A stretch of DNA of 62,590 bases, the filler included, from Sanchytrium tribonematis (taxonomy: Eukaryota): the NCBI GenBank assembly GCA_018985235.1. It is 7 parts of 7 records of this genome, joined end to end, with 100 filler letters (N's around TTAATTAATTAA, not from the genome) between each part and the next. Parts side by side here need not be neighbours in the genome. Positions count along the whole stretch, not along the records: positions 53,792 to 62,590 come from JADGIG010000358.1; 6 more parts are not named here. One strand, written 5' to 3'. The position numbers and the translations under genes were made by a program. Below are positions 29,281-62,590 of this stretch, one piece after another. The first letter of the stretch is position 1. Every line of letters begins with the position of its first letter. Under the pieces are notes generated by a model. The model was not told where the DNA came from, made no database searches, and worked only from the letters and a program-made list of their open reading frames with translations.

Positions 29281-29284
29281 ATCG

Positions 29285-29600
29285 TTTATAAAAAATCAAT
29301 TTCATCAAAAACGCGTCATGTGCACTTGGGATAATTTCATCTAGTAAATTATATGTTGAAACTCTATCACACTTGTCAAATGCACATGAGCAGTCATATT
29401 TCTTAATAACATAGTCATCTCGTTGATCTATGGGAATCCTCTTAATAAATTCATTCATATCAAATGCACAATAGTGGTAGGAAGTACCTGCTTTATACGC
29501 ATATGAGTATTCACTGGTTTGGAAACATGATTTATTCTCTACCAATTTAAATAGATGTCTCAAAAGTCCCATTGGACGTGCTTTTAAAATCTGGGGATTA
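29285..29600 (-). mobile_element. LINE RT fragment of the same family as 57230-59392
   Basis: RPMGLLRHLFKLVE..YAYKAG..KKYDCSCAFD versus RYLGMTSHLKKMME..YGYKKG..KKYDQRAAFD. Confidence 0.8.
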
Positions 29601-29659
29601 TTTTGTAACTTGGGGATTGGTGCAATCAATGTCAAAAGAAGATCATTTGGAATGTTCAA

Positions 29660-31917
29660 ATTAAGCTGCATCAGTAAAAAGAACGATCAAATTCGTCTTG
29701 TTATTGATTGTAGACCTTTAAACAATATTACTATAAAATACAAACTACCAAATGCCGCATATAAACTATTTATTGGCGATGCTACAGTGTGCAATAATCT
29801 TCTCATCTCTTGATTTGATGTCAGGCTATAATCAAATTTGAATCGCAATGGATTCTTTGAAGTATTCTTGTATTGCCCTACCTTGGGGTATTTATCGATT
29901 CAAACAAATGTATTTTGGTCTCACTAATGCATTTTTCACATTTCAATCAATGATGAATTCTCTTCATGGACATTTAAAATTTGTCCTGGTGTACTTGGAC
30001 GATGTTCTGATATTTAGTTAAACACTAGAAAATAACCCTGTTATTTTTATTCAAATTTGGTCAAGATATGCGACTCTTAAAAAAGAATGTTACGCTATTG
30101 TGAGTGCATTAGTTCATCTCCGATACATGCTTTTTGGTACAGAAATGGAATTTCAATAAACTGGATAGCCCGCGTGTGATGCGATGGAAATCCATTATTG
30201 AGAAATTTAACGTCAATATGAGCCCAATCAAAGGCTCTTCAAACAGATCGGATTATATGAGTAGACCTCCTAATGAATCTTTACCAGTATTATCAATTAT
30301 TGCTGTTAATTATCCCTTACAACTAAATTTCCTTAAAAGATGTCAAGATAATGACAAAGATTTTAATATTGTTCTAAAACATATGTTTAAACCCAGCAAT
30401 AAATGGCTTACAAAATATCAAAAATTAATTGCACCAAATGCATACATTCATAAAATTGAAGGCATTGAATTATTATGTCAATCTCGTGAAGATGATTCAA
30501 AACAAATATTAGTACCTCTAATGTAGATAAGATGTTTGGTGGAAGTGTGCTAATTGGGATATCCTCAAATTCCTCACCATCATATTTCTCACTTAAGGAA
30601 ATAGGTGTTTTACTCTGTTGTTGAGGTGTTAGAGTACCATTGTCTCCATTGGAAGTTCTTTGTTTCTCTCCTGTTTCAGTTGATTTTAAATCACTCGCTA
30701 CCATCTAAATGTAGATAAGATCTTTATTGGGAACTTTGGCTCTATTTAAGCAATTAGAACCTTCTAGAAATTCCCTTATCTTTCAATTGATAACACATCC
30801 GTGTTACAGTACCAAATTGTGTTAAACTAAATGTTCTCTCAGGTTATATGAAATTATATTACACCCTTTCAACTTATAATTATTGGCCGTATCTGAAAGA
30901 TGATTGTCAAAAACATACAAATCGTTGCAACACTTGTAAATAAATCAAACCTGTCCATCATGAATATGGCGTGTTTGAAGATCGATTGAATCCTCCAAAA
31001 ATGCCATTTGAACAAATCAGTGTTGATTTAACAGGCCCCTTACACCTTGTGACATAGACGGAATCGAATATATTTATTCACTAAATGTTATTTGCAATTT
31101 TTCAAAATTTGTAATTTTAATACCATTAACATCCTTGACTGCCAAAGAGCTGTGTAATGCATTTGATAAAAAAGGATTGTGTGTTTACACGTTGAGTGAC
31201 AATGGATCTAATTTAACCAGTTTTGAATATCGAGAATTATTGTTATCATATGGAATTAAACAAAGTACCACCAATGTGGCGAACCCACAAGGTATATCAT
31301 TTATTGAGAGAATGTATGGCTCAATGCAAACTATGATGAAACTCGAAGCGGACACTGAATGGGCTCATGCTATATCGTCAATTCAGTGGGCAATTAACTC
31401 TACCTAATATGAACCCCGCGGAAGTGATATTTCACACACCAAAAAATCAGGTTCCACCAAATTATACTGAGATTCCACTACGCCAGCAGAAACAAAGATC
31501 AAAGGATTTAAAACGCAAAAATGAACGTAGAATCAAACACAACTACAAAGTTGGCGATTCAATCTTTCTAAAAAATGAAAAGAGAAAGCATAAATTAGAC
31601 AAACTTTATCTAGAACCGTATCCTATTGTTAAAGTGTTTCCAGAAGCAAATAATATATTAATCTACAAAGATGGTATATTTACGAATAAATTATCGTAAG
31701 GTTATCCCTGAAACTGGAACTACCAATTTTGCCATAAAAAAGAGAAAGGGTAGAATGTCACGAACGTGACACAACAGTACACATCATTACAATAGTTGCA
31801 CAACTGCACAAGATCTACAAAGGATCTGCTCAGTAGTGTAACCTTCTACAACATAAAAGCACACAACGCTTCAATAAATAACTTTCATCTACCTAGGTTA
31901 TGTTAGTGTCGCCTACA
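29660..31917 (+). mobile_element. Degenerate Ty3/gypsy pol (RT, RNase H, integrase) with PPT and 3' LTR
   Basis: RLVIDCRPLN, VYLDDVL (about 29990), RW.....F..IKGSSN..DYMSR, WP.L..C..C zinc finger, SDNGSN and ERM integrase motifs, LY.EPY. Confidence 0.85.
31756..31917 (+). repeat. Putative short 3' LTR (about 162 bp, TG...CA)
   Basis: Follows polypurine tract 31736-31755 directly; starts TGTCA, contains AATAAA; 3' boundary (..CCTACA) is inferred. Confidence 0.55.
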
Positions 31918-31979
31918 TAAATACAGTGCGGGCCACCAAGGCGCTTTAATTTTTGAAAATGGCCTACTTTGTCGCGAAT

Positions 31980-33300
31980 TTAGCTGGGAATATAAAATCC
32001 CATGTATCCTTGCCCTGCTAATTCTACAAGAATATGATCATGTCTAATGGATGGTAAATTAATACTACCATGATGATATTTGTATGGATTCAGTAACAAG
32101 CACATCCCGTAGTGACCATTTGAATTTGTGCCAGGATTGAGTAAATATGATTCAGGAGTGTAAGTCTCTTTTGCAAGTTTGCATTCAGCAATAAACAAAC
32201 AATCTAGTGATGTAGAATCTACTAAAGACAGGCAGTATGCTTCACGTCCCTTTTATCCGTCGCAATTGTAAAATGCGATTTTTAACAATTCAGATGAATC
32301 TACCAGATTAACGCGAGTAATATCCGGGAATATTCGAAAATTGGAATGTAGTGCTGTATTTCGGATTTCTGTATGATGTATAGAGTGATTAGATGTATCA
32401 TTTTCATTATTGGGAGTTACAGTTGCAACATTTTGAGACACTGACTGGGGATTTGCATTCAAATTAGAGAGAATTTCAAATAAATTATTATTGGGGAAGC
32501 CTCCATACAATTTACCAGTGATAAATAACTCATCATTCAGTTTTAATACCGAATCATTTCTTCTCAAAACGTGATTTACGTAAATATTGCAATGGGAATT
32601 TGCAGGTTTGGAAAGAGTTGTAGAATGCCTATTTCTAACGTTTGAGTGTGCTTTGTAGTGATACAAATAGTTGGGTGATGTAACAATTTAACAAAGTAAA
32701 AATAAGGATGCTGATTGGATGGAACTTTATTTAGCTTGAGTGTTTGCCAAAGACATGCATATACAAATGATATTTGCAGTTTACAAAGTATATCAATTAT
32801 AAAGAAAATCAATGAAATATCGAATGTGACAAATGTCGAAAGTGTGGGGAATGTGTAATCTTGAAGATATTTCGACAAATTAGCAACAGAAGCAAATAAA
32901 GTGTGTTTGATTTGTAAATCATTTACTTGAATAACATCACGAGTCACTACATTTGACTTCTGTGTTGGATAAGTCGAAAATGACCTTGTTAATGAATACG
33001 TGTAAGTAATTTCCAATTCTACACAAGAGGGATCCACAAACAATAGTGTTTGATTGGGGTCCATAACGACTCCCTTTTCTTCATATATTTGCCATTGTAG
33101 AATCCACCAATCAAATGTTGACAATTCACTTAGGATCGATTTCCCAATCATTTCTAAAGTAACTGATTCTGGGCAGTTGTCAAGCTGTCTAGTGTGCTCA
33201 CGAGGGAGTCCTTCATCAGAATAAAAAGCTATAGTTCTGATGGCAATTGTTTTGGGTCCTGGATATGGTTTCAACTGTGTTGATTCTTCTGTTAAAACTG
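31980..33300 (-). mobile_element. Degenerate copy of the Ubl-bearing LINE family (Ubl-GG followed by APE start)
   Basis: FVKLL...KLYGG, NLFEIL, AFYNCDG and YGMCL...HDHILV...MGFYIP align to 59710-62283. Confidence 0.8.
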
Positions 33301-34000: not shown

Positions 34001-35892
34001 TTATTGTAGATAATGCATAAAATCGTAAATATTGGATTGAACAGACTGCGTTGTCACGCTTGGAAATGCTTGTTCTATCTTAGATTTTAAATCAGAAATA
34101 TAATTATTGATTGTTGGTACCATATTGGAGTAAATTGGTTGATCAAATGAGTTAATTTTAGCAAGAAATACTGTTCCTGACTCAATTAAATTAATGTATT
34201 TTGATTCATCGTGACCATTTACATCTTCCAATGCACCTTCAATTTCTGGCGTGTAAAATGACTCGTTGTTAACATCATTAAATTCCCCACTGTACTCACC
34301 AAATACAGAGCATTGTATTGCTTCCTGCACTGTTATTTGACTAAACGCTGTTTCAGTTGACAAATTTACAGCATTTTCAATCCTGTCAATTTCATCAATG
34401 TTGGAAATCATCATTCCTAATATAAGAACTAAATTACCACCAAAAAGAGTATGAATGTAATTTAATCCCAATTCTCTATCCATTTCCTCTGTTGATTCAG
34501 TCATTGTTGCTGGTGGATTGGGAGAAATTGGCAAAAATTCAATTGGTGGTAATGGCAAATTGTTTGTGGTGTTGATAAACTGTTGTCTCTGTAGACCCAT
34601 TTATCTAATAATCTAGTGTTAGCAGCCTTTAAAATGGCATTGCTATCTTCATTTATCATTATTTGTTGAATATTTGAAATTTTTGTTGCTTCCGGAAGAC
34701 AAATAGATCTAATCCATGCCCGCATTATCATATTAAAATCAATAGAATCCCAGCTCATGGAAATAAATTTGGCTAATTCAAATGTTGATGGAGATGAGCA
34801 TTGGATAGAATCAAACAATGCATTTTTCAATAATTCATTTTCATTTGTAGTAATAATTTCACTAAATCCTTCTCGTGTTAAAATACCCAGCGCCTCTGAT
34901 TCTAGTGCCTTCATATGATCATTAATATACATTTTGCGATATTTACACTTCAAAGAATAGAATAAAACTGCATCAAGGGGTTGAAATTGTGATGTCGAAT
35001 TTGATGGCAAAAATGCAATTTTGATTCTATTCAAGCTGGAGAGAAAAGATAGACTCATAACGTGTGCACTGTAATTATCCACAATTAACAATAAATTTGG
35101 CAGAACTTTGGGATGACCATCAATGTATAGCAAAATTTGTTCGAATAATAAGGAATTCATCCAGCCCTTATTAGAATTACCACGAATGCAATTACAACTA
35201 TGCATTTGCTGATAGCAGTGCTTTCCATTTGCAATTTTGTTAATCCATTCCCACAATGCTTGCTTACGTCGCATATCATGTGGTTGCATCGCAGAGCCAA
35301 TGAAAGCAATTGGCAATTTGTCACCATTAGCAAATACAGTACCAACAAGTGATACTCTTTTATTTGAACTTGCACGTCCATGGACTTCATCACCAATAAA
35401 TCCAATTGTCATCGTGCCTAAAATCTCATAAAAAAGTGCGGATTCATCCAAATGTAGCAGTCTATCTGCTGTATAGGAATCATAATCTGGCACCTGCTCT
35501 CTTAGATATTCTAATACATCATTACGTTGTACACTAACACCAGCACTAGTTCCACTTGCAGAGCGATATTTTAAGCCATTTCTTCTAAAAAAGGATTCTC
35601 TGAAATCTTGTAAATATGTAAATGGTTTTGAGGGATATATAATATCTGCTAATAAACATTCATTTCTAATATCTAATTCAATTTGAAGCGCGTGCCGGCA
35701 AAATTGGGCAGAGTTTTCCAAAATTCCTAGATTATTTACACTTTTAATAAGCAATAAAAGGGCTTTTTCAAGTTTGCAATACATTGGTGTTCTTTGGTGA
35801 CCAGCAAATCCACTCAAACGAATGTCAGATGGCAATAAATGCTTTTCAATTCTAGTTTTGGGATTGGATTTGACAGTTAAAACCCCAATTTT
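34001..35892 (-). mobile_element. pogo/Tigger-like (DDE_1) transposase, 5' truncated, frameshifted near 34600
   Basis: LDESALF, KGWMNS..F, LLIVDNYSAH, FLPSNSTSQFQPLD. Confidence 0.88.
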
Positions 35893-35992
35893 NNNNNNNN
35901 NNNNNNNNNNNNNNNNNNNNNNNNNNNNNNNNNNNNTTAATTAATTAANNNNNNNNNNNNNNNNNNNNNNNNNNNNNNNNNNNNNNNNNNNN
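35893..35992. other. Artificial contig linker
   Basis: N44-TTAATTAATTAA-N44. Confidence 0.99.
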
Positions 35993-55378: not shown

Positions 55379-55968
55379 TTATGACTTATTTGGAAGATTA
55401 CTAGTGGGTATGCCATGTATTGCGATGTGCTTATCAATTTGATTCAAAGACACCAAACACTTATCCAACTTAGCCGCCATATCCATTCCCGAGAGATTTT
55501 TGTCACCCGCCATATTATCCATGACAATCTCTATCTCCCTCCTATTTTTGAACATAATGTCCCTTTTATCGCGTATATTACTACCATTATGATTTATATT
55601 TGAGATAGCAGGGTCCAATTCAAGCAAATTTTCACAAATAATGTCCAACTGGTCGCAAGGTGGGGTTAATCAAAGTTTACAATCATTTGACGATTTATTG
55701 ATTATAAACCACATAGTAGGAATCAAATCACTATACAAATTAAGCTGTATTACATTGGGAATCAAGTATATATAATGTGCACACATGGCAATCTATTTGT
55801 GACACTATAATTACAGCTACATCCATATAATCCATCTATATTATCAATTATAAATGTAGACTTCTTATATACAACCGTGATAGATCCATCATCATTACTG
55901 AAATGGGATTTGCAGTTGTAATATTTATCCATTTCATTTTTAATCAAATTAGATGCATATGAGGTCAC
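55379..55968 (-). mobile_element. MULE-type transposase remnant (SWIM finger)
   Basis: CSCNYSVTNRLPCVH matches the CxC..PCxH SWIM motif; stops nearby. Confidence 0.6.
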
Positions 55969-55971
55969 AAT

Positions 55972-56763
55972 ATGACAAGAGGAGATTTCGACTTTGAAAA
56001 TTTGTCTCGATTGAGTAACTTTTCACTCATAATAAATCGTTCTTTGGAAACATTGAACTTGCAAACCCATAGTATCTTCCATTTACTAGCGACCCCAAAT
56101 GGAAATAACGAATATTATTCATCTAGGAAGCATACTCGCTTCATTTTAGCAAACGTTCCTCCGGATTTGACTCCTGAAAGCATTATGAGGTATATTCGTG
56201 GTCATTACAAAAGCTGCGGCCATTTATTTGCCGAAATGCAGCAGATATACGACAAAACATTCATTGAAATTATTTGTAAAAAAGTACATTTCCCCCGAAT
56301 CAGCACGATATTTAGTCAGATGAAGACTAAATTTACAAATTTTGATGTGTATGGCATTTCCGAAGTACTCTGGATGGATTTAATTAAGTCATACGATGAT
56401 ATTTTACAATATGAAATTGAAAGACTCAAACAGGCACCTATCGACCTATTTTATAAATTGCAATTATCAAAAAGTAGACATAAAATGAATTCTGTAAGCT
56501 ATGTATATTGTGATAGTACCAAATATCTTCTACAGGGGAAATATTCAACATATTTCTTAAAAAGAAGTATTTATTGGAAATATCTAGAGCTTGAGAGATT
56601 GTGCTCATTAGATTCGTGGTTTTATCATTCACCCTACGATGATATAACCACATATACAACATTCGAGTTACTCATGTTTTTTTTTATTACACGATTTATT
56701 GACTCAAAATCTAAAAGAGCGAACGAAAGAATCTTCCAAATTCACATAAATGTTCTTCTGTAA
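55972..56763 (+). mobile_element. ORF1-like fragment homologous to the N-terminus of the LINE polyprotein at 59710-62283
   Basis: RFIL..., IEII, W, E...L and VSY motifs colinear with RFII..., VELI, W, E...L, VSY. Confidence 0.55.
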
Positions 56764-56810
56764 TGTGATCTACTTGTTTCGATATTTGACTAAGTAAATT
56801 TCCTTCTTTC

Positions 56811-57233
56811 TTGACAATTTCTTCAAGGTATCTGTCAAATCTTAATGATTTCACTATTTATTGTGACAATAAGTCAAGTCTTAGAATTTGTCAAAATATT
56901 TGGGACAATCATGATCCCTCTAAATCGTCTTTTTCTCATATTGTAATGAAGGAATTATATTTACTAAAACAAAAGGGTGTCTCGCTTCAATTTGAGTGGG
57001 TAAAAGGACATGCTGGACATGAATTTAATGAGTTAGCAGATTCCCTGGCTGGTGAAATCAATCCCAGCATTCCAAATTTACGTTTATTTTCTTCCAGCAG
57101 AATTTCCAATAAAAGGCCCACCAGCTTTTGGTATGGTGAAAATCATTTGGACTTTAAGAATTTAAATTCTTTTCAAATGCGAACTTTTACAAAAAATGTT
57201 GCCGCGTTTATGAATACAATGTATTTATTTTAA
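56811..57233 (+). mobile_element. Retrotransposon RNase H fragment
   Basis: YCDNKSS, EWVKGHAG..FNELADSLA. Confidence 0.8.
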
Positions 57234-60200
57234 TGCACAGCCGGGTGTTTATGAGATGGTGCTCTATTTTCTAAATCCCCTAATAAATTCTTTCTTTCTC
57301 TTTCTTTCTCTTTCTTTCTTGGATATTTCTTGCTCACTAATGAAGTAAAATATCTATTTGAATTATCTTGCAATGGCAAATTACATCCAACATCACAAAT
57401 ATCATTTCCACGACAATAATCCTCGTCATTTTCTTCTTTATGCGCATAAACATGTTTCATTTCAACATTTTCAAAATTCCCTTGAATAATCAAATCCAAA
57501 TTGTTTATCTTCCCATAATCACCATTTGATTGATATAATTGAATGGCCTGGATGGCAGACATGCTGTCTGTTAGAATGAGTAAATGTTTAGAATCATCAC
57601 GGCATTTGGTGGCCTCTACAATACAGGCTATTTCACTGCGAGTACTGCTATTAATATTTAAAGTAGTAAAATCATATAAAATGTATGATTTCGTAGCTGG
57701 TTTGAAAATGCAACCAGTTGATTTATCAAGTGTGAAACTGGCATCTGTATACATTATCTCATATAAATTATTATTATAATCACAAATAAATCTATCATTA
57801 TTCATATTATATGGTAGGATTGCCATATCTAGTCCAATTTGAGTGAATGAATTGATTGGAGTGATATTTGATCTATCAACAAATGACGATTCTGCTAGAA
57901 ATTTGAGACCACACTGCTGGATCCAATACTGATTCTTGTAAATATTGCCAGATTTATGCGATTTGTTACATAAATGACAATAATCTAGATTTTGTGGGGG
58001 GATTTGCAATTTTAGTAATTTTTGCAATCTTTTGTATTTGCATGTTCTTTTATGGATGTTTGAGGATGACATGGAGTATTTGACTTTTGGAAATGTCACT
58101 ATCTGGCTAATGGGTTGATTTAATCGTTGAATAGTATGATTTCGATGTCTCGCATGTAAATCATGCCAACGGAAATAGAAATGTTCCATATTGTACAGTT
58201 GATAAATGTAGTCATTTGTCATGGATGATGATGCACCAATATAATCACGCACATCTTTGAGAATAAATGAGTTGATGCGATTTGCAATGGTCTTTTCAGG
58301 GGGAAACAATTTCAATCCCTTTTCAATCAAAGGAAGAACCATTGATTTATAAATTGTCAATAATCCACGCGCATTTAATGCTCCATTGAATACACCAGTT
58401 TGTATATTAAAGTATTTACGAGTATTGGCAGCTTTCAAATTTAAATCAACTTGTTGTTTTCTACTAAATCCATTTTGATTAAATAAAATGCCAAGATAGG
58501 AGTCTTTGGCAGTCAAATATCTTGTCTTACTGTCATTCAAATATAAATTAACTGATTCTAGTCTATTAGTCAATTCTAAATCAAATTCTGCAAAATTGGT
58601 TTCAGGAGCAGCAGCCACCAAATCATCAGAAAACATGGAGAAGAAGTTCTCCCGAGTACGCAAGTCACCCAATAGTCTATCCATTAATAATGCAAACAGC
58701 AACGGCGACAGAACTGATCCTTGTATCACACCCGTGTTTGTTTCACGAGTGGATGAGTAGCAGGGACCAATTCGGAACATGACACGCTGTTTAACAACTA
58801 GATATTTCAATACATAGCAGTCTACTTTGTTGGGAATCAAATCATCCAACATATTACAAATGGCAACTCGTGAGCATGTGTCAAATGCAGCACGTTGGTC
58901 ATATTTCTTTATCTTATACTTGGATCTCTCTGCTTTTGGCAATTGCTTAAGAAATGAATCCAAGTCATACACTGCATCACAATGATTGACACCCTTCTTA
59001 TACCCGTACTGCACGTCAGATGTGCGTAACTCATTGGAGTATCTATTTTGCAGCATTTTCTCCATCATTTTCTTTAGATGACTTGTCATCCCCAAATAAC
59101 GGTACTTATGTATGTCAATTGTTTCAACACCCTTGGGAATGGGGTGCAGAATTGTTGTAATGAATAAATCTGGAATTAAAAGGCATTTTTGAATGGAAAC
59201 AAATAAATCAGTCAACATCTCTAAAAGCAGAGGATCTGCATATTTTACAAGTTCAATAGGTAGCTTGTCACTTCCCGTGGACTTATTCATGGGCATTTTA
59301 CCCAGAGCAGCTTTTATTTCATCCAATGTGAATGGAATGACATCATTTTCAATATTTGAATTTAAGCAATTCCTGGGATACTTCTCTGTCATTCCACTTG
59401 GTATCTACTAGTTTGGTACTATAATCTTCGACACGGGTAAAGTCAAGCATGCTCTTTGGATCAAATTTGTGTTTGCGTGCAAATTTGGTAATTTTTAACA
59501 AATCAGAGGCATTCTGACTATTTTTGAACTTGGAAAGATTATGGAAATGCTCTCTTTTCTCTTTACAGTAAATCTCAAATGGATCTTGACCACTGGTGAA
59601 TAAATTTGCTTGTAACGCATTTTTGAATTTCTCCATGTGTTCTGGAATAATAAATGGTTTTGGTTTTGTATATCCAATTATATCACTTCCACAGTCAATA
59701 AGGCACTTTTCAATGATAAGAAGAGCTTGCTGGTTGATGCGAACTCAAATTTTGGTAAAATTCAGGGGAAATTTGTCTCAAACGAGCTGCCGAGATGCAT
59801 TTGAAATGCTCTCGATTTGGAAACTCAACATTCCCATTAGAATCCTTTATGGACTGGTTAAATTTATATACTTTTAGCTTAGATTCTTTGACAACAATCA
59901 AGTCTTTACTAAAATCATGCAAATCAATTTCTAGACAAATTGATAGATGATCACTGCATGTTTGTGGGAAACAATGCAATTGAGTTCTATAATCAGATGA
60001 GGTAGGTGTTAATGCGTAGTCTAATAATGAACATTGGTCGGAATTATATCGGCAATAAGAGAAATTTGAATTTAAAGGCAAAATGATTTCTAGATTCTTT
60101 GAGTAGATGTAATCAGCAAATGACTGATATTTTGATGTTGGATTATCATGACTGGCACCCACATTTACATCTCCTAAATAAATACAATTACTTCCACCGA

Positions 60201-62283
60201 TTTTATATAAATTATGGAAATATGCCGCTTTATCACGCACATTTGCTGGCAAATACACTCCCATTATACGAAGTGCACCCACTTGAATAAGAATATGATC
60301 AAATCTCTTTGACAACACACGAATATCACCCTTTTTATATTTTAAATGATTTATGGCTAAACACATGCCGTATTGTGAAGTGGGTGTGCAACTTGCTTTG
60401 ACTACAAATGATGCAGGTAGCCAGGATGTGTCTTTTAGCCTTGTTTCAGATACGAAAAAGAGGTCAGGTTCGTATTTCTCTATCTGATTCAAAATAAATG
60501 CTTCTTTATGTTTGATGCCATTGATATTCAAATACGCTGCCTTGAAACCATTTTCAAATTCAAATTGAGGCTCACTGACTTCCTCAAATGATCTTAGATG
60601 CCTGAAGTATAATTTTGACTCGTTTTTGGATCTTGTGAGGGGAACATTCTCTGACAGTTGTTGATTTGAGATTAATGTCTGTTCTGCTAGAATTTCAAAA
60701 GGATTTTGGTGTTTTACATTAGTGGATCCACCAGGTTGATACCCACATATTTGAACTGTATCTTGTGGGAATATTTTAAAATTTGGATTCAATGTTGTTT
60801 TATGATTCAATTGAATTATCCACTTTCTATTACGAATGGATTGTCCTTTAGGCATAACAGTATCACATATATCATGCCATAATAGACTACTGGAATTAAA
60901 TTCTATGCATCTTGTCCCTTGATCTAGAAATTTAAAAAAGAAGCAATAATTTGAAGTAGTGTTTACTGACTTCATTTTAACTGACTTAATAGCTTGAAAT
61001 GCGATGGTACCTTGGAAATCAGTCGTCACAATGCTCACATCATATGAACTTGGATTGTTTTTGATTTCCAGTGGAAGAAAGTGGTTTGCGGATGCATCCA
61101 TTGGAACTGTCATGACCCATTTAGTATCATTGTATTCGCAGAATACTTTGATGTCCTGGACAGATTCATTCACAATAAAAATAGTAGTGTTGGGATTCAC
61201 AATTGCATCTAATTTCTTGCAATTTTTCATATTGTAAACCAGATACTTGAATTGGCGATTTCTGATTGCTTGTTGGAGTGTCAAATTTGGCTTCCAAGTG
61301 TAAATTGTGTATCCTTGACTATCAATCACTTCATACTGGGGTGGTTTGGGTGTTGGATTTGTCTTTTGACGCTTTTGCAATGGAGATTCAATTGTACTGT
61401 TTGCAGGTCTGGGAGTGACTTGATTGGACTGGATTTCACTTGCAGTAGGTCTTAGAGTCTGATGATGATGCTCTAAAGACGCAATCATTTGTTGTGACAC
61501 ACTGGAAGAAGGAGCAACAGATTGATTTGATTGGATGTCATCTGTCTCATTTCTCTCTTCAATAACATTCAAACCAAATGCATTTTCCAACGCAGAAAAA
61601 TCCGTATTTGCCAATTGATCCGAATTAATCATTGGTTGAAAGCGGAATTGATTTGATGCAATCAATTTGTCAATATCCTTGATAATTTGGATTTTAAAGG
61701 CCTTTTGATTGAAACCATTTCCATTTAATTGCTTTAACGCACCCATCCAGCAGTAGCTGACGGTTCCAAAGTATCTTGGTCTAGAGTAAGCTTTTAAATC
61801 GAGTCCTAAACTGATTATTGACTTGCGCAGACCGTGACATTCCTTTTTAAGAAGGATTTTGTTACTTGGGCGCGCTAAAAAACAATTCCATTCTAATTGG
61901 CTATACATGGTAGCCTGTCCAAAGTAGGTTGCCATTTCTTCACTAGTCTGAAATGTTACAAAAGCAGCTTTTAATGCGGGTACTGTCTTTTCTTCCACAA
62001 TTAATTCCACACAGCAATTGTTGTGCGTAAACATACAAATTGGAATAAATTTAAATGCCACTTTCATTTGATTCTTGAATGCCAATTGAATACCTTCTGC
62101 ATTCATGTTGCCTTCATCATTTTCGCGTCCTTTGCGTAATCCAACAATAATAAAGCGCAAATATGACTTGTTTTCTTCATTGTTGATATATTTATCAAAA
62201 AGTTTAATTGTTTTTGGTGAAGGAGCGTGACTGTGATTTTGCTCGAAAGCATCTGCAGTGACTGGGAGATCTCCTTGTGTCAT
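57230..62283 (-). mobile_element. Near full-length non-LTR retrotransposon: ORF1-like, Ubl(GG), APE, RT, Cys-rich motif, RNase H; two frameshifts (about 59740 and 59365)
   Basis: APE (YLNING, SETRL, GDVN, LDY, SDH); RT (KSTGSD, AFD, GVIQGSVLSPLLF, FSDD, YLGI); CHLC; RNase H (YTDAS, SEI, TDS, HVYAH, GND.CD). Confidence 0.9.
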
Positions 62284-62590
62284 AGTTACTCATGTTTGTG
62301 CAATACTTTTTGTGGATGTCAAATTACCTACTTGTCGTACCTTCTAAACCGGTTTCTAGCACCATAACGTACTTTGTTAAGCACCCTCACTGCAAAACAA
62401 TAGTGAAAACTACATCAGTAGGCACCTGGTTCTCTATCGTGAAGAAGGATCTAAATTTGTCCCAATCACAGGATTTAAAATGGAAATACTTTAGAAATGG
62501 GATTTTGCAAATTCGAGACTTTGTTTTGTGTCACAACGACACGAATTTATGTCACTTGGTGGCTCTCCTAATGTGAATCAATTTGAGATT

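Follow-up and report, generated by a model that had tools for sequence, protein, structure and literature searches.

It has long been asked how LINEs obtain both their RNA-binding and their enzyme parts from a single transcript; the known routes include reinitiation and stop-start overlap as well as 2A skipping. A LINE copy from Sanchytrium tribonematis raises the question again. It lies in a stretch of 62,590 nucleotides, filler included (here called the window), which is gene-dense, has about 35% G+C and carries eukaryotic genes. According to the first-pass annotation of this locus, a ubiquitin-like (Ubl) segment ending in Gly-Gly joins an ORF1-like region to the APE endonuclease, and a host protease might use it to release the enzymes. 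Is the segment a Ubl domain, is its Gly-Gly kept in relatives, and what would such a domain do for the element?

The insertion spans 5604 bp on the minus strand (56680..62283), from the A of its start codon to its poly(A). It is flanked by 14-bp direct repeats, one on the 5' side (62284..62297) and one on the 3' side beside the poly(A) run (56666..56679), and empty-site contigs join 56665 to 62284. With APE upstream of RT, a poly(A) end and a target-site duplication, the element is an APE-type non-LTR retrotransposon. The copies read were those in the window and in the contigs of run X1, a run that is possibly the source of the window itself and lends no independent support. An 857-aa ORF (59710..62283, minus strand, like all parts of the copy given below), delineated by translation, Pfam and likeness to the relative P0003, carries an ORF1-like region, three compact domains, a linker and APE. 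The ORF1-like region, the Ubl segment and APE are therefore in one frame, as had been claimed. The N-terminal region (aa 1-200; 61684..62283), whose ORF1-like role we infer from its position, has an RRM-like pattern by eye, no Pfam match and no CCHC knuckle. Compact domain 1 (aa ~315-373; 61165..61341) is 26% identical to P0003 and compact domain 2 (aa ~375-443; 60955..61161), for which the model is of low confidence, is 20% identical; neither has Gly-Gly. The third is the ubiquitin-like segment (aa 446-519; 60727..60948), and it ends in the Gly-Gly (60727..60732) that translation, the lineage alignment and motif counts point to as a candidate cleavage signal. A linker of about 62 aa (60544..60726; 12-67 aa in relatives, from distances in lineage proteins) leads to APE (59914..60543), in which the catalytic motifs N-x-NG, SE, GDxN, LDY and SDH occur in order and Pfam Exo_endo_phos matches aa 584-782 under its curated cut-off (E 5e-5 and 2e-4).

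The remainder of the copy is interrupted. The spacer between APE and RT (59349..59744, matching P0003 819-929) is in a shifted frame, with a first frameshift near 59740, and RT and RNase H (57377..59365; Pfam RVT_1 E 5e-20 and RNase_H E 1e-5; P0003 941-1573) lie past a second near 59390. An assembly error is an unlikely source of frameshift, since one contig spans 59336-60624 without a difference. The last codons of the frame, followed by AATAAA and poly(A) (56680..56850; likeness to the P0003 end by eye), are severed by a nested plus-strand fragment, provisionally placed at 56790-57325. This fragment has a (TTTC)n tail and matches the latter half of the RNase H domain (Pfam E 5e-7), and it interrupts the end of the LINE frame. 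The one-frame polyprotein that had been proposed is thus present up to APE, but RT and RNase H are two frameshifts further on; since the frame ends after APE, the whole polyprotein is found only in relatives such as P0003. The first-pass annotation had also overlooked that the copy is inactive, that two compact domains lie upstream of the segment and that two more pieces of the window bear Gly-Gly.

P0003, also from S. tribonematis, is the nearest relative. It is a single frame of 1635 aa running from the start to RNase H, in which Pfam recognises APE, RT and RNase H. It is 27% identical to the 857-aa ORF over 792 columns and 29% identical to the 74-aa segment, with Gly-Gly at the equal position. 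P0003 is one frame, and the three frames of the window copy align with it in the same order, so the natural product of the family is one polyprotein, ORF1-like front included. P0012 and P0014 are likewise one frame throughout, and ORF1 in a separate frame, a typical and not universal LINE trait, was absent from the window copy, P0003, P0012 and P0014. The family shares the APE-RT-RNase H order, the poly(A) tail and the target duplication with the two-frame APE LINEs that have RNase H (I, Tad, R1 and plant L1), but differs from them in having neither a separate ORF1 nor a CCHC knuckle; LINE ORF1 types are surveyed in the available text of PMC4120745. Both the window copy and P0003 have two compact domains ahead of the Gly-Gly domain. 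Compact domain 1 was the best non-training match of a Gly-Gly-domain profile (iE 0.2) and is possibly a degenerate beta-grasp repeat, as judged from its sequence; that both upstream domains are also beta-grasp is a guess. Since whole-protein BLAST found no internal repeat in P0002 or P0003, the evidence for three beta-grasp repeats is their pattern and a single weak match. A single-sequence model of the three compact domains was poor (pLDDT 37.7). An X1 contig of 92 bases (depth 14), lying on 60704-61398, skips 60746-61347 and one further base (603 in total); the three compact domains are gone from it and the last codons with Gly-Gly are kept, and it may be a decayed copy.

Translation of 60727-60948 (minus strand) reproduced the 74-aa segment as first quoted, with the C-terminal YQPGG, and its distance from APE, given earlier as about 60 residues, agreed with our reading that APE motif I begins about 62 residues past the Gly-Gly. 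The ubiquitin residues F4, K6, L8, T12, E16 and I44 to which it had been matched are all in the segment, but this likeness alone is not significant. F4 and I44 are readable in alignments of the relative P0011 with PDB ubiquitin chains, and K6, L8, T12 and E16 we take to be ubiquitin positions. Searched by itself, the segment had no match in Pfam at E<=5, no relevant match among PDB sequences at E<=10 and no cluster match in the Atlas, where searches gave no usable lead (best 0.76); no curated family (ubiquitin, SUMO, Urm1, ThiS/MoaD) matched the window domain in Pfam or PDB. Of 2000 shuffles, 228 did as well as the segment in global alignment with MoaD and 132 did so with ThiS. MoaD comparisons gave E values of 0.42 and 0.17, which are not significant, and in a profile of 1487 columns the best local MoaD match was at the Gly-Gly end, in register. 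Comparisons of profiles made from whole-protein alignments were dominated by APE and RT, with no ubiquitin-like chains among the best 60 of 152 rows.

The fold was modelled with AlphaFold2 from an alignment of eight related rows, which takes in the ubiquitin-like P0011. The model is a beta-grasp (pLDDT 80.5, pTM 0.65) with strands at 5-11, 15-21, 46-51, 54-56 and 69-75 and a helix at 28-35, in the order strand-strand-helix-strand-strand-strand, and the Gly-Gly follows directly after the last strand. Foldseek with this model gave no match under E 0.001; its list consisted almost wholly of ubiquitin-superfamily chains, with DWNN (TM 0.75), Mth1743, MoaD and preSUMO-3 in the top rows. Mth1743 we take to be ThiS-like. 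In VIA-align, which compared the model with 48,161 chains, DWNN also came first (Z 8.6, rmsd 3.0, 80 aligned), followed by Mth1743 (Z 7.4) and by midnolin and the nuclease-bound domain of Mpe1 (both Z 7.0), with the caution that a Z under 8 can reflect a common arrangement. A Z of at least 5 was reached by 152 chains, and the best 50 of these 152 were beta-grasp domains or fusions with one. ISG15 and FAT10 were among the matches of both programs, and SUMO chains stood among, not above, the other beta-grasp structures. The beta-grasp prediction that had been proposed as a check was thus obtained, and we place the 74-aa segment, by predicted topology, in the ubiquitin superfamily. It is through its relatives and its predicted structure, not through its own sequence likeness, that the candidate domain becomes more than a chance resemblance.

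Relatives were gathered by a profile search of 1.84 billion representatives, which yielded 43 proteins; word-based protein searches returned only the window protein, P0003 and four distant RTs, and scans of metagenome and viral contigs returned no relative. In 27 of the 43, fewer than 25 residues precede APE; these were excluded from the Gly-Gly count, so that 16 were scored. Nine of these were assigned to the lineage by score or RT tree, and the other seven are outside proteins. In the RT tree, built without P0010 and P0015 (which have no RT) and without named-clade references, eight members group together (100/100), and the seven unlabelled RTs from outside the lineage lie apart from them. 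The scored motif was a Gly-Gly no more than 100 residues ahead of APE that is preceded, at a distance of ten residues, by Asp or Ser, a spacing that is equal in E. coli MoaD, ThiS and ubiquitin. It was present in five of the nine lineage matches (the window protein, P0009, P0010, P0011 and P0015) and absent from P0012, P0013, P0014 and P0028, while none of the seven evaluable outside proteins had Gly-Gly there. When P0003 and two further pieces of the window are counted, one of which needs 10 extra contig bases, the motif is found in 8 of 12 lineage sequences. The expectation that the Gly-Gly would be conserved thus holds in register in divergent relatives, but fails as a universal rule in 4 of the 12; since P0012, P0013, P0014 and P0028 do without the motif, not all members require it. 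Among GG-bearing members it lies right past the predicted last strand, with the spacing of known family members, as in a Gly-Gly-terminated Ubl. These members fall in two of the group's three RT-tree subgroups, both separate and fully supported.

Because identity of the domain between members is just about 20-30%, the Gly-Gly has been retained while neighbouring residues drift. It occurs at only 19 of 11,836 positions in ten lineage proteins, and chance estimates were 0.005 for any Gly-Gly and 6e-7 for the spaced motif. These figures ignore kinship and the post hoc choice of motif, and they overstate the case because the members are related and the motif was framed after the first sequences had been seen. 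The four residues ahead of the Gly-Gly are highly variable among members. The residue after it is a proline, which would block ubiquitin-type cleavage, in none of the eight GG-bearing sequences. SUMO has a conserved tail of the Q-x-GG type, and the earlier comparison of the segment with the SUMO terminus did not survive: Q-x-GG is found in only one of the eight, only the Gly-Gly is invariant, Pfam gave no match, and we rejected the SUMO reading. We regard the predicted Ubl whose conserved Gly-Gly joins the front part to the enzymes as a real, lineage-wide feature of these single-frame LINEs.

In P0011 the domain before APE matches ubiquitin itself, with many PDB ubiquitin chains at E values of 0.001-0.004 per single copy; the Pfam ubiquitin match (E 0.073) is below cut-off. 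A family profile built without P0011 listed neither P0011 nor MoaD nor ThiS among its best 30 rows. The Ubl of P0011 sits behind a GG-less compact domain that is weakly like the Gly-Gly domain of its sister P0009 (22%, E 1.4). This arrangement is consistent with capture of a fresh ubiquitin copy at the same spot, where it would have replaced an older domain; the alternative is divergence from one old capture. Among the members without the motif, P0012, P0014 and P0028 have a strongly hydrophobic stretch ending in small residues about 65-75 residues before APE. This signal-peptide-like stretch (19-residue hydropathy 1.6-2.2) also occurs in P0015 and at window positions 62286-62345. It precedes the last compact domain ahead of APE, which in P0012, P0014 and P0028 has no terminal Gly-Gly, and it might offer another means by which the polyprotein is cut or anchored.

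What, then, does the domain do? Given the predicted Ubl fold and a Gly-Gly kept in most relatives, host ubiquitin-cutting enzymes are likely to split the protein, and cleavage of the polyprotein after Gly-Gly by a host ubiquitin or ubiquitin-like protease is in our judgement the likeliest role and a reasonably probable one. The predicted Ubl-GG, in frame between the ORF1-like part and APE, would be the site. Cleavage there would yield two products, one ORF1p-like with Ubl-GG at its end and the other ORF2p-like, made of linker, APE, RT and RNase H, a post-translational separation in place of the two frames of ordinary LINEs or the 2A of some single-frame LINEs. Since Pfam found no protease domain in P0003, P0009 or P0011, an enzyme of the host would have to make the cut. 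Ubiquitin- or SUMO-specific proteases read defined tails before Gly-Gly; because the residues there vary among members, no single protease can be named, and for the same reason the SUMO reading was dropped. Ubiquitin-ribosomal protein fusions and polyubiquitin, which are processed after Ubl-GG, provide a parallel in that another protein follows the Ubl-GG in frame, but there the ubiquitin is N-terminal and invariant, whereas the LINE domain is internal and diverged. Another parallel is that of cytopathogenic pestiviruses, in which, according to the accessible text of PMC8310069, cellular hydrolases cut ubiquitin inserts in the polyprotein and free NS3. In both cases a ubiquitin-fold domain stands in a polyprotein directly before an enzyme, with host cutting there, which for the LINE is our proposal, and BVDV entries were among the fold matches at ranks 8, 35 and 38. 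The viral inserts were captured recently, are close to intact host sequence and occur in single strains, whereas the LINE domain is old, strongly diverged and lineage-wide.

A Ubl need not be cut. Like the Ubl of DWNN/Mpe1, Rad23 or UBX proteins, it could be an integral module through which the polyprotein docks on a host partner or the proteasome, its Gly-Gly being structural or inherited; we consider this unlikely while giving it some weight. The best structural matches were DWNN (Z 8.6) and the nuclease-bound Mpe1 domain (Z 7.0), the tails ahead of the Gly-Gly vary, up to three domains stand in tandem, and members without the Gly-Gly retain compact domains before APE. However, the Gly-Gly ends only the last domain before APE, no other feature of this domain (20-30% identity) is kept as well, and Pfam DWNN did not match. 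The resemblance of our predicted model to DWNN of RBBP6/Mpe1 (2c7h, 6i1d; TM 0.75, Z 8.6) extends to an internal Gly-Gly at the end of the fold, as in human and mouse; in the accessible part of PMC1360078, DWNN is an integral domain, has Gly-Gly in some organisms only, and its conjugation is merely proposed. A search for the term in the available text of PMC4201286 gave nothing relevant. In contrast to DWNN, the segment is 16% identical, has no Pfam DWNN match and no RR, is accompanied by neither zinc knuckle nor RING, and belongs to a mobile element instead of a host gene. Membership in DWNN, which would rest on the structure match, was rejected for want of a Pfam match and the RR motif. Another reading begins with cleavage and goes further: with its C-terminal Gly-Gly exposed, the ORF1-like part would be activated by a host E1 and then either joined to proteins or thiocarboxylated, perhaps to tag the particle of the element or to jam host defence. 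The Gly-Gly is at the structurally proper end of the fold, and tandem domains with one terminal Gly-Gly recall ISG15 and FAT10. Recognition by one E1 seems unlikely given the variable tails and surfaces, and Pfam scans of lineage proteins showed no element-encoded E1, E2 or E3; we hold this reading to be improbable.

Still less probable is that the domain is a decaying passenger from a host mRNA with no role in transposition. Domain capture is frequent in LINEs (in the available text of PMC4120745), one contig is without the domains and four members are without the motif, but the domain has been kept in frame with Gly-Gly in two distinct RT-tree branches, each fully supported, and in three elements of the window alone. 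Finally, the PGG end could act as a 2A-like ribosome-skip signal and not as a protease site, which we think very improbable indeed. The position equals that of LINE 2A peptides and the window copy ends in QPGG; against this, NPGP is absent from all ten lineage proteins scanned, and a proline precedes the Gly-Gly in two of eight sequences. Since the D(V/I)ExNPGP motif was found in none of the ten, a 2A/StopGo identity was rejected. The 2A ribosome-skip peptide is nevertheless the closest described device in LINEs, at the same position. In the available text of Odon et al. (PMC3708506, found by way of PMC11512398), such peptides immediately precede APE in LINEs most of which have a single frame, and they are proposed to yield the front functions separately; L1Tc, Ingi and some CR1/L2/Crack/Rex elements bear them (PMC3708506). 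Like those elements, the present family has a single long frame with a candidate separating signal upstream of APE. Unlike them, with their skip peptide ending in NPGP, it has a predicted folded Ubl with Gly-Gly, no NPGP and a full ORF1-like region in front.

The available text of PMC3708506 makes no mention of ubiquitin, and the word does not occur in the main text, as available, of the LINE surveys PMC4120745 and PMC5203782 or of the sanchytrid genome paper PMC8371127. The claim that a Ubl in a LINE is an undescribed layout thus agrees with the literature searched, in which we found none; Repbase, Dfam, supplements and most subscription journals lay outside its scope.

The two further Gly-Gly-bearing pieces belong to other members of the family in the window. 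One is a decayed member with a frameshifted Ubl ending in Gly-Gly (32499-32504), a linker and an APE remnant (32499..32700, minus strand), recognised by sequence comparison; its RT and APE remnants are in two pieces about 2 kb apart (29282-29683 and 31899-32700, minus strand) with many stops. The other is the plus-strand element that received the LINE insertion in its front part, a related LINE (55972-56665 and 62298-62590, plus strand) that starts at 55972 and is 57% identical to P0015. Its Ubl and Gly-Gly (62322..62563, with Gly-Gly at 62558-62563, plus strand), identified from contigs and P0015 likeness, are out of frame in the window and in one frame in contigs with 10 extra bases at 62543. 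The window LINE, this host element, P0003 and P0015 all start with MT(Q/R)GD, and a 15-base start motif is common to both window elements (62269-62283, minus; 55972-55986, plus). The insertion begins exactly at the start-codon A, with no 5' untranslated part, and another contig also departs at 62283; these LINEs may be leaderless, their promoter or priming signal lying within the first codons. Elsewhere, the window holds a DDE_1 transposase frame (34501-35940, minus strand, E 4e-16) and a short frame in which a SWIM-like Cys/His motif can be made out by eye (55762-56022, minus strand), both being remains of other transposons.

A broader scenario, which we offer tentatively and consider rather doubtful as a whole, is that this LINE lineage dropped two-frame translation and has one polyprotein processed by host proteases. 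Most members would be processed at Ubl-GG, where real ubiquitin would have been captured anew at least once, and GG-less members perhaps by way of the signal-peptide-like stretch; the freed ORF1-Ubl-GG may also be conjugated. If it is, a retrotransposon would be the source of its own protein modifier. The family adds to the ubiquitin superfamily a diverged, element-borne branch of predicted fold that is invisible to Pfam. A Ubl-GG site would be a further route by which LINEs make both parts from one transcript and, because that route would depend on the host ubiquitin system, the host would gain a control point.
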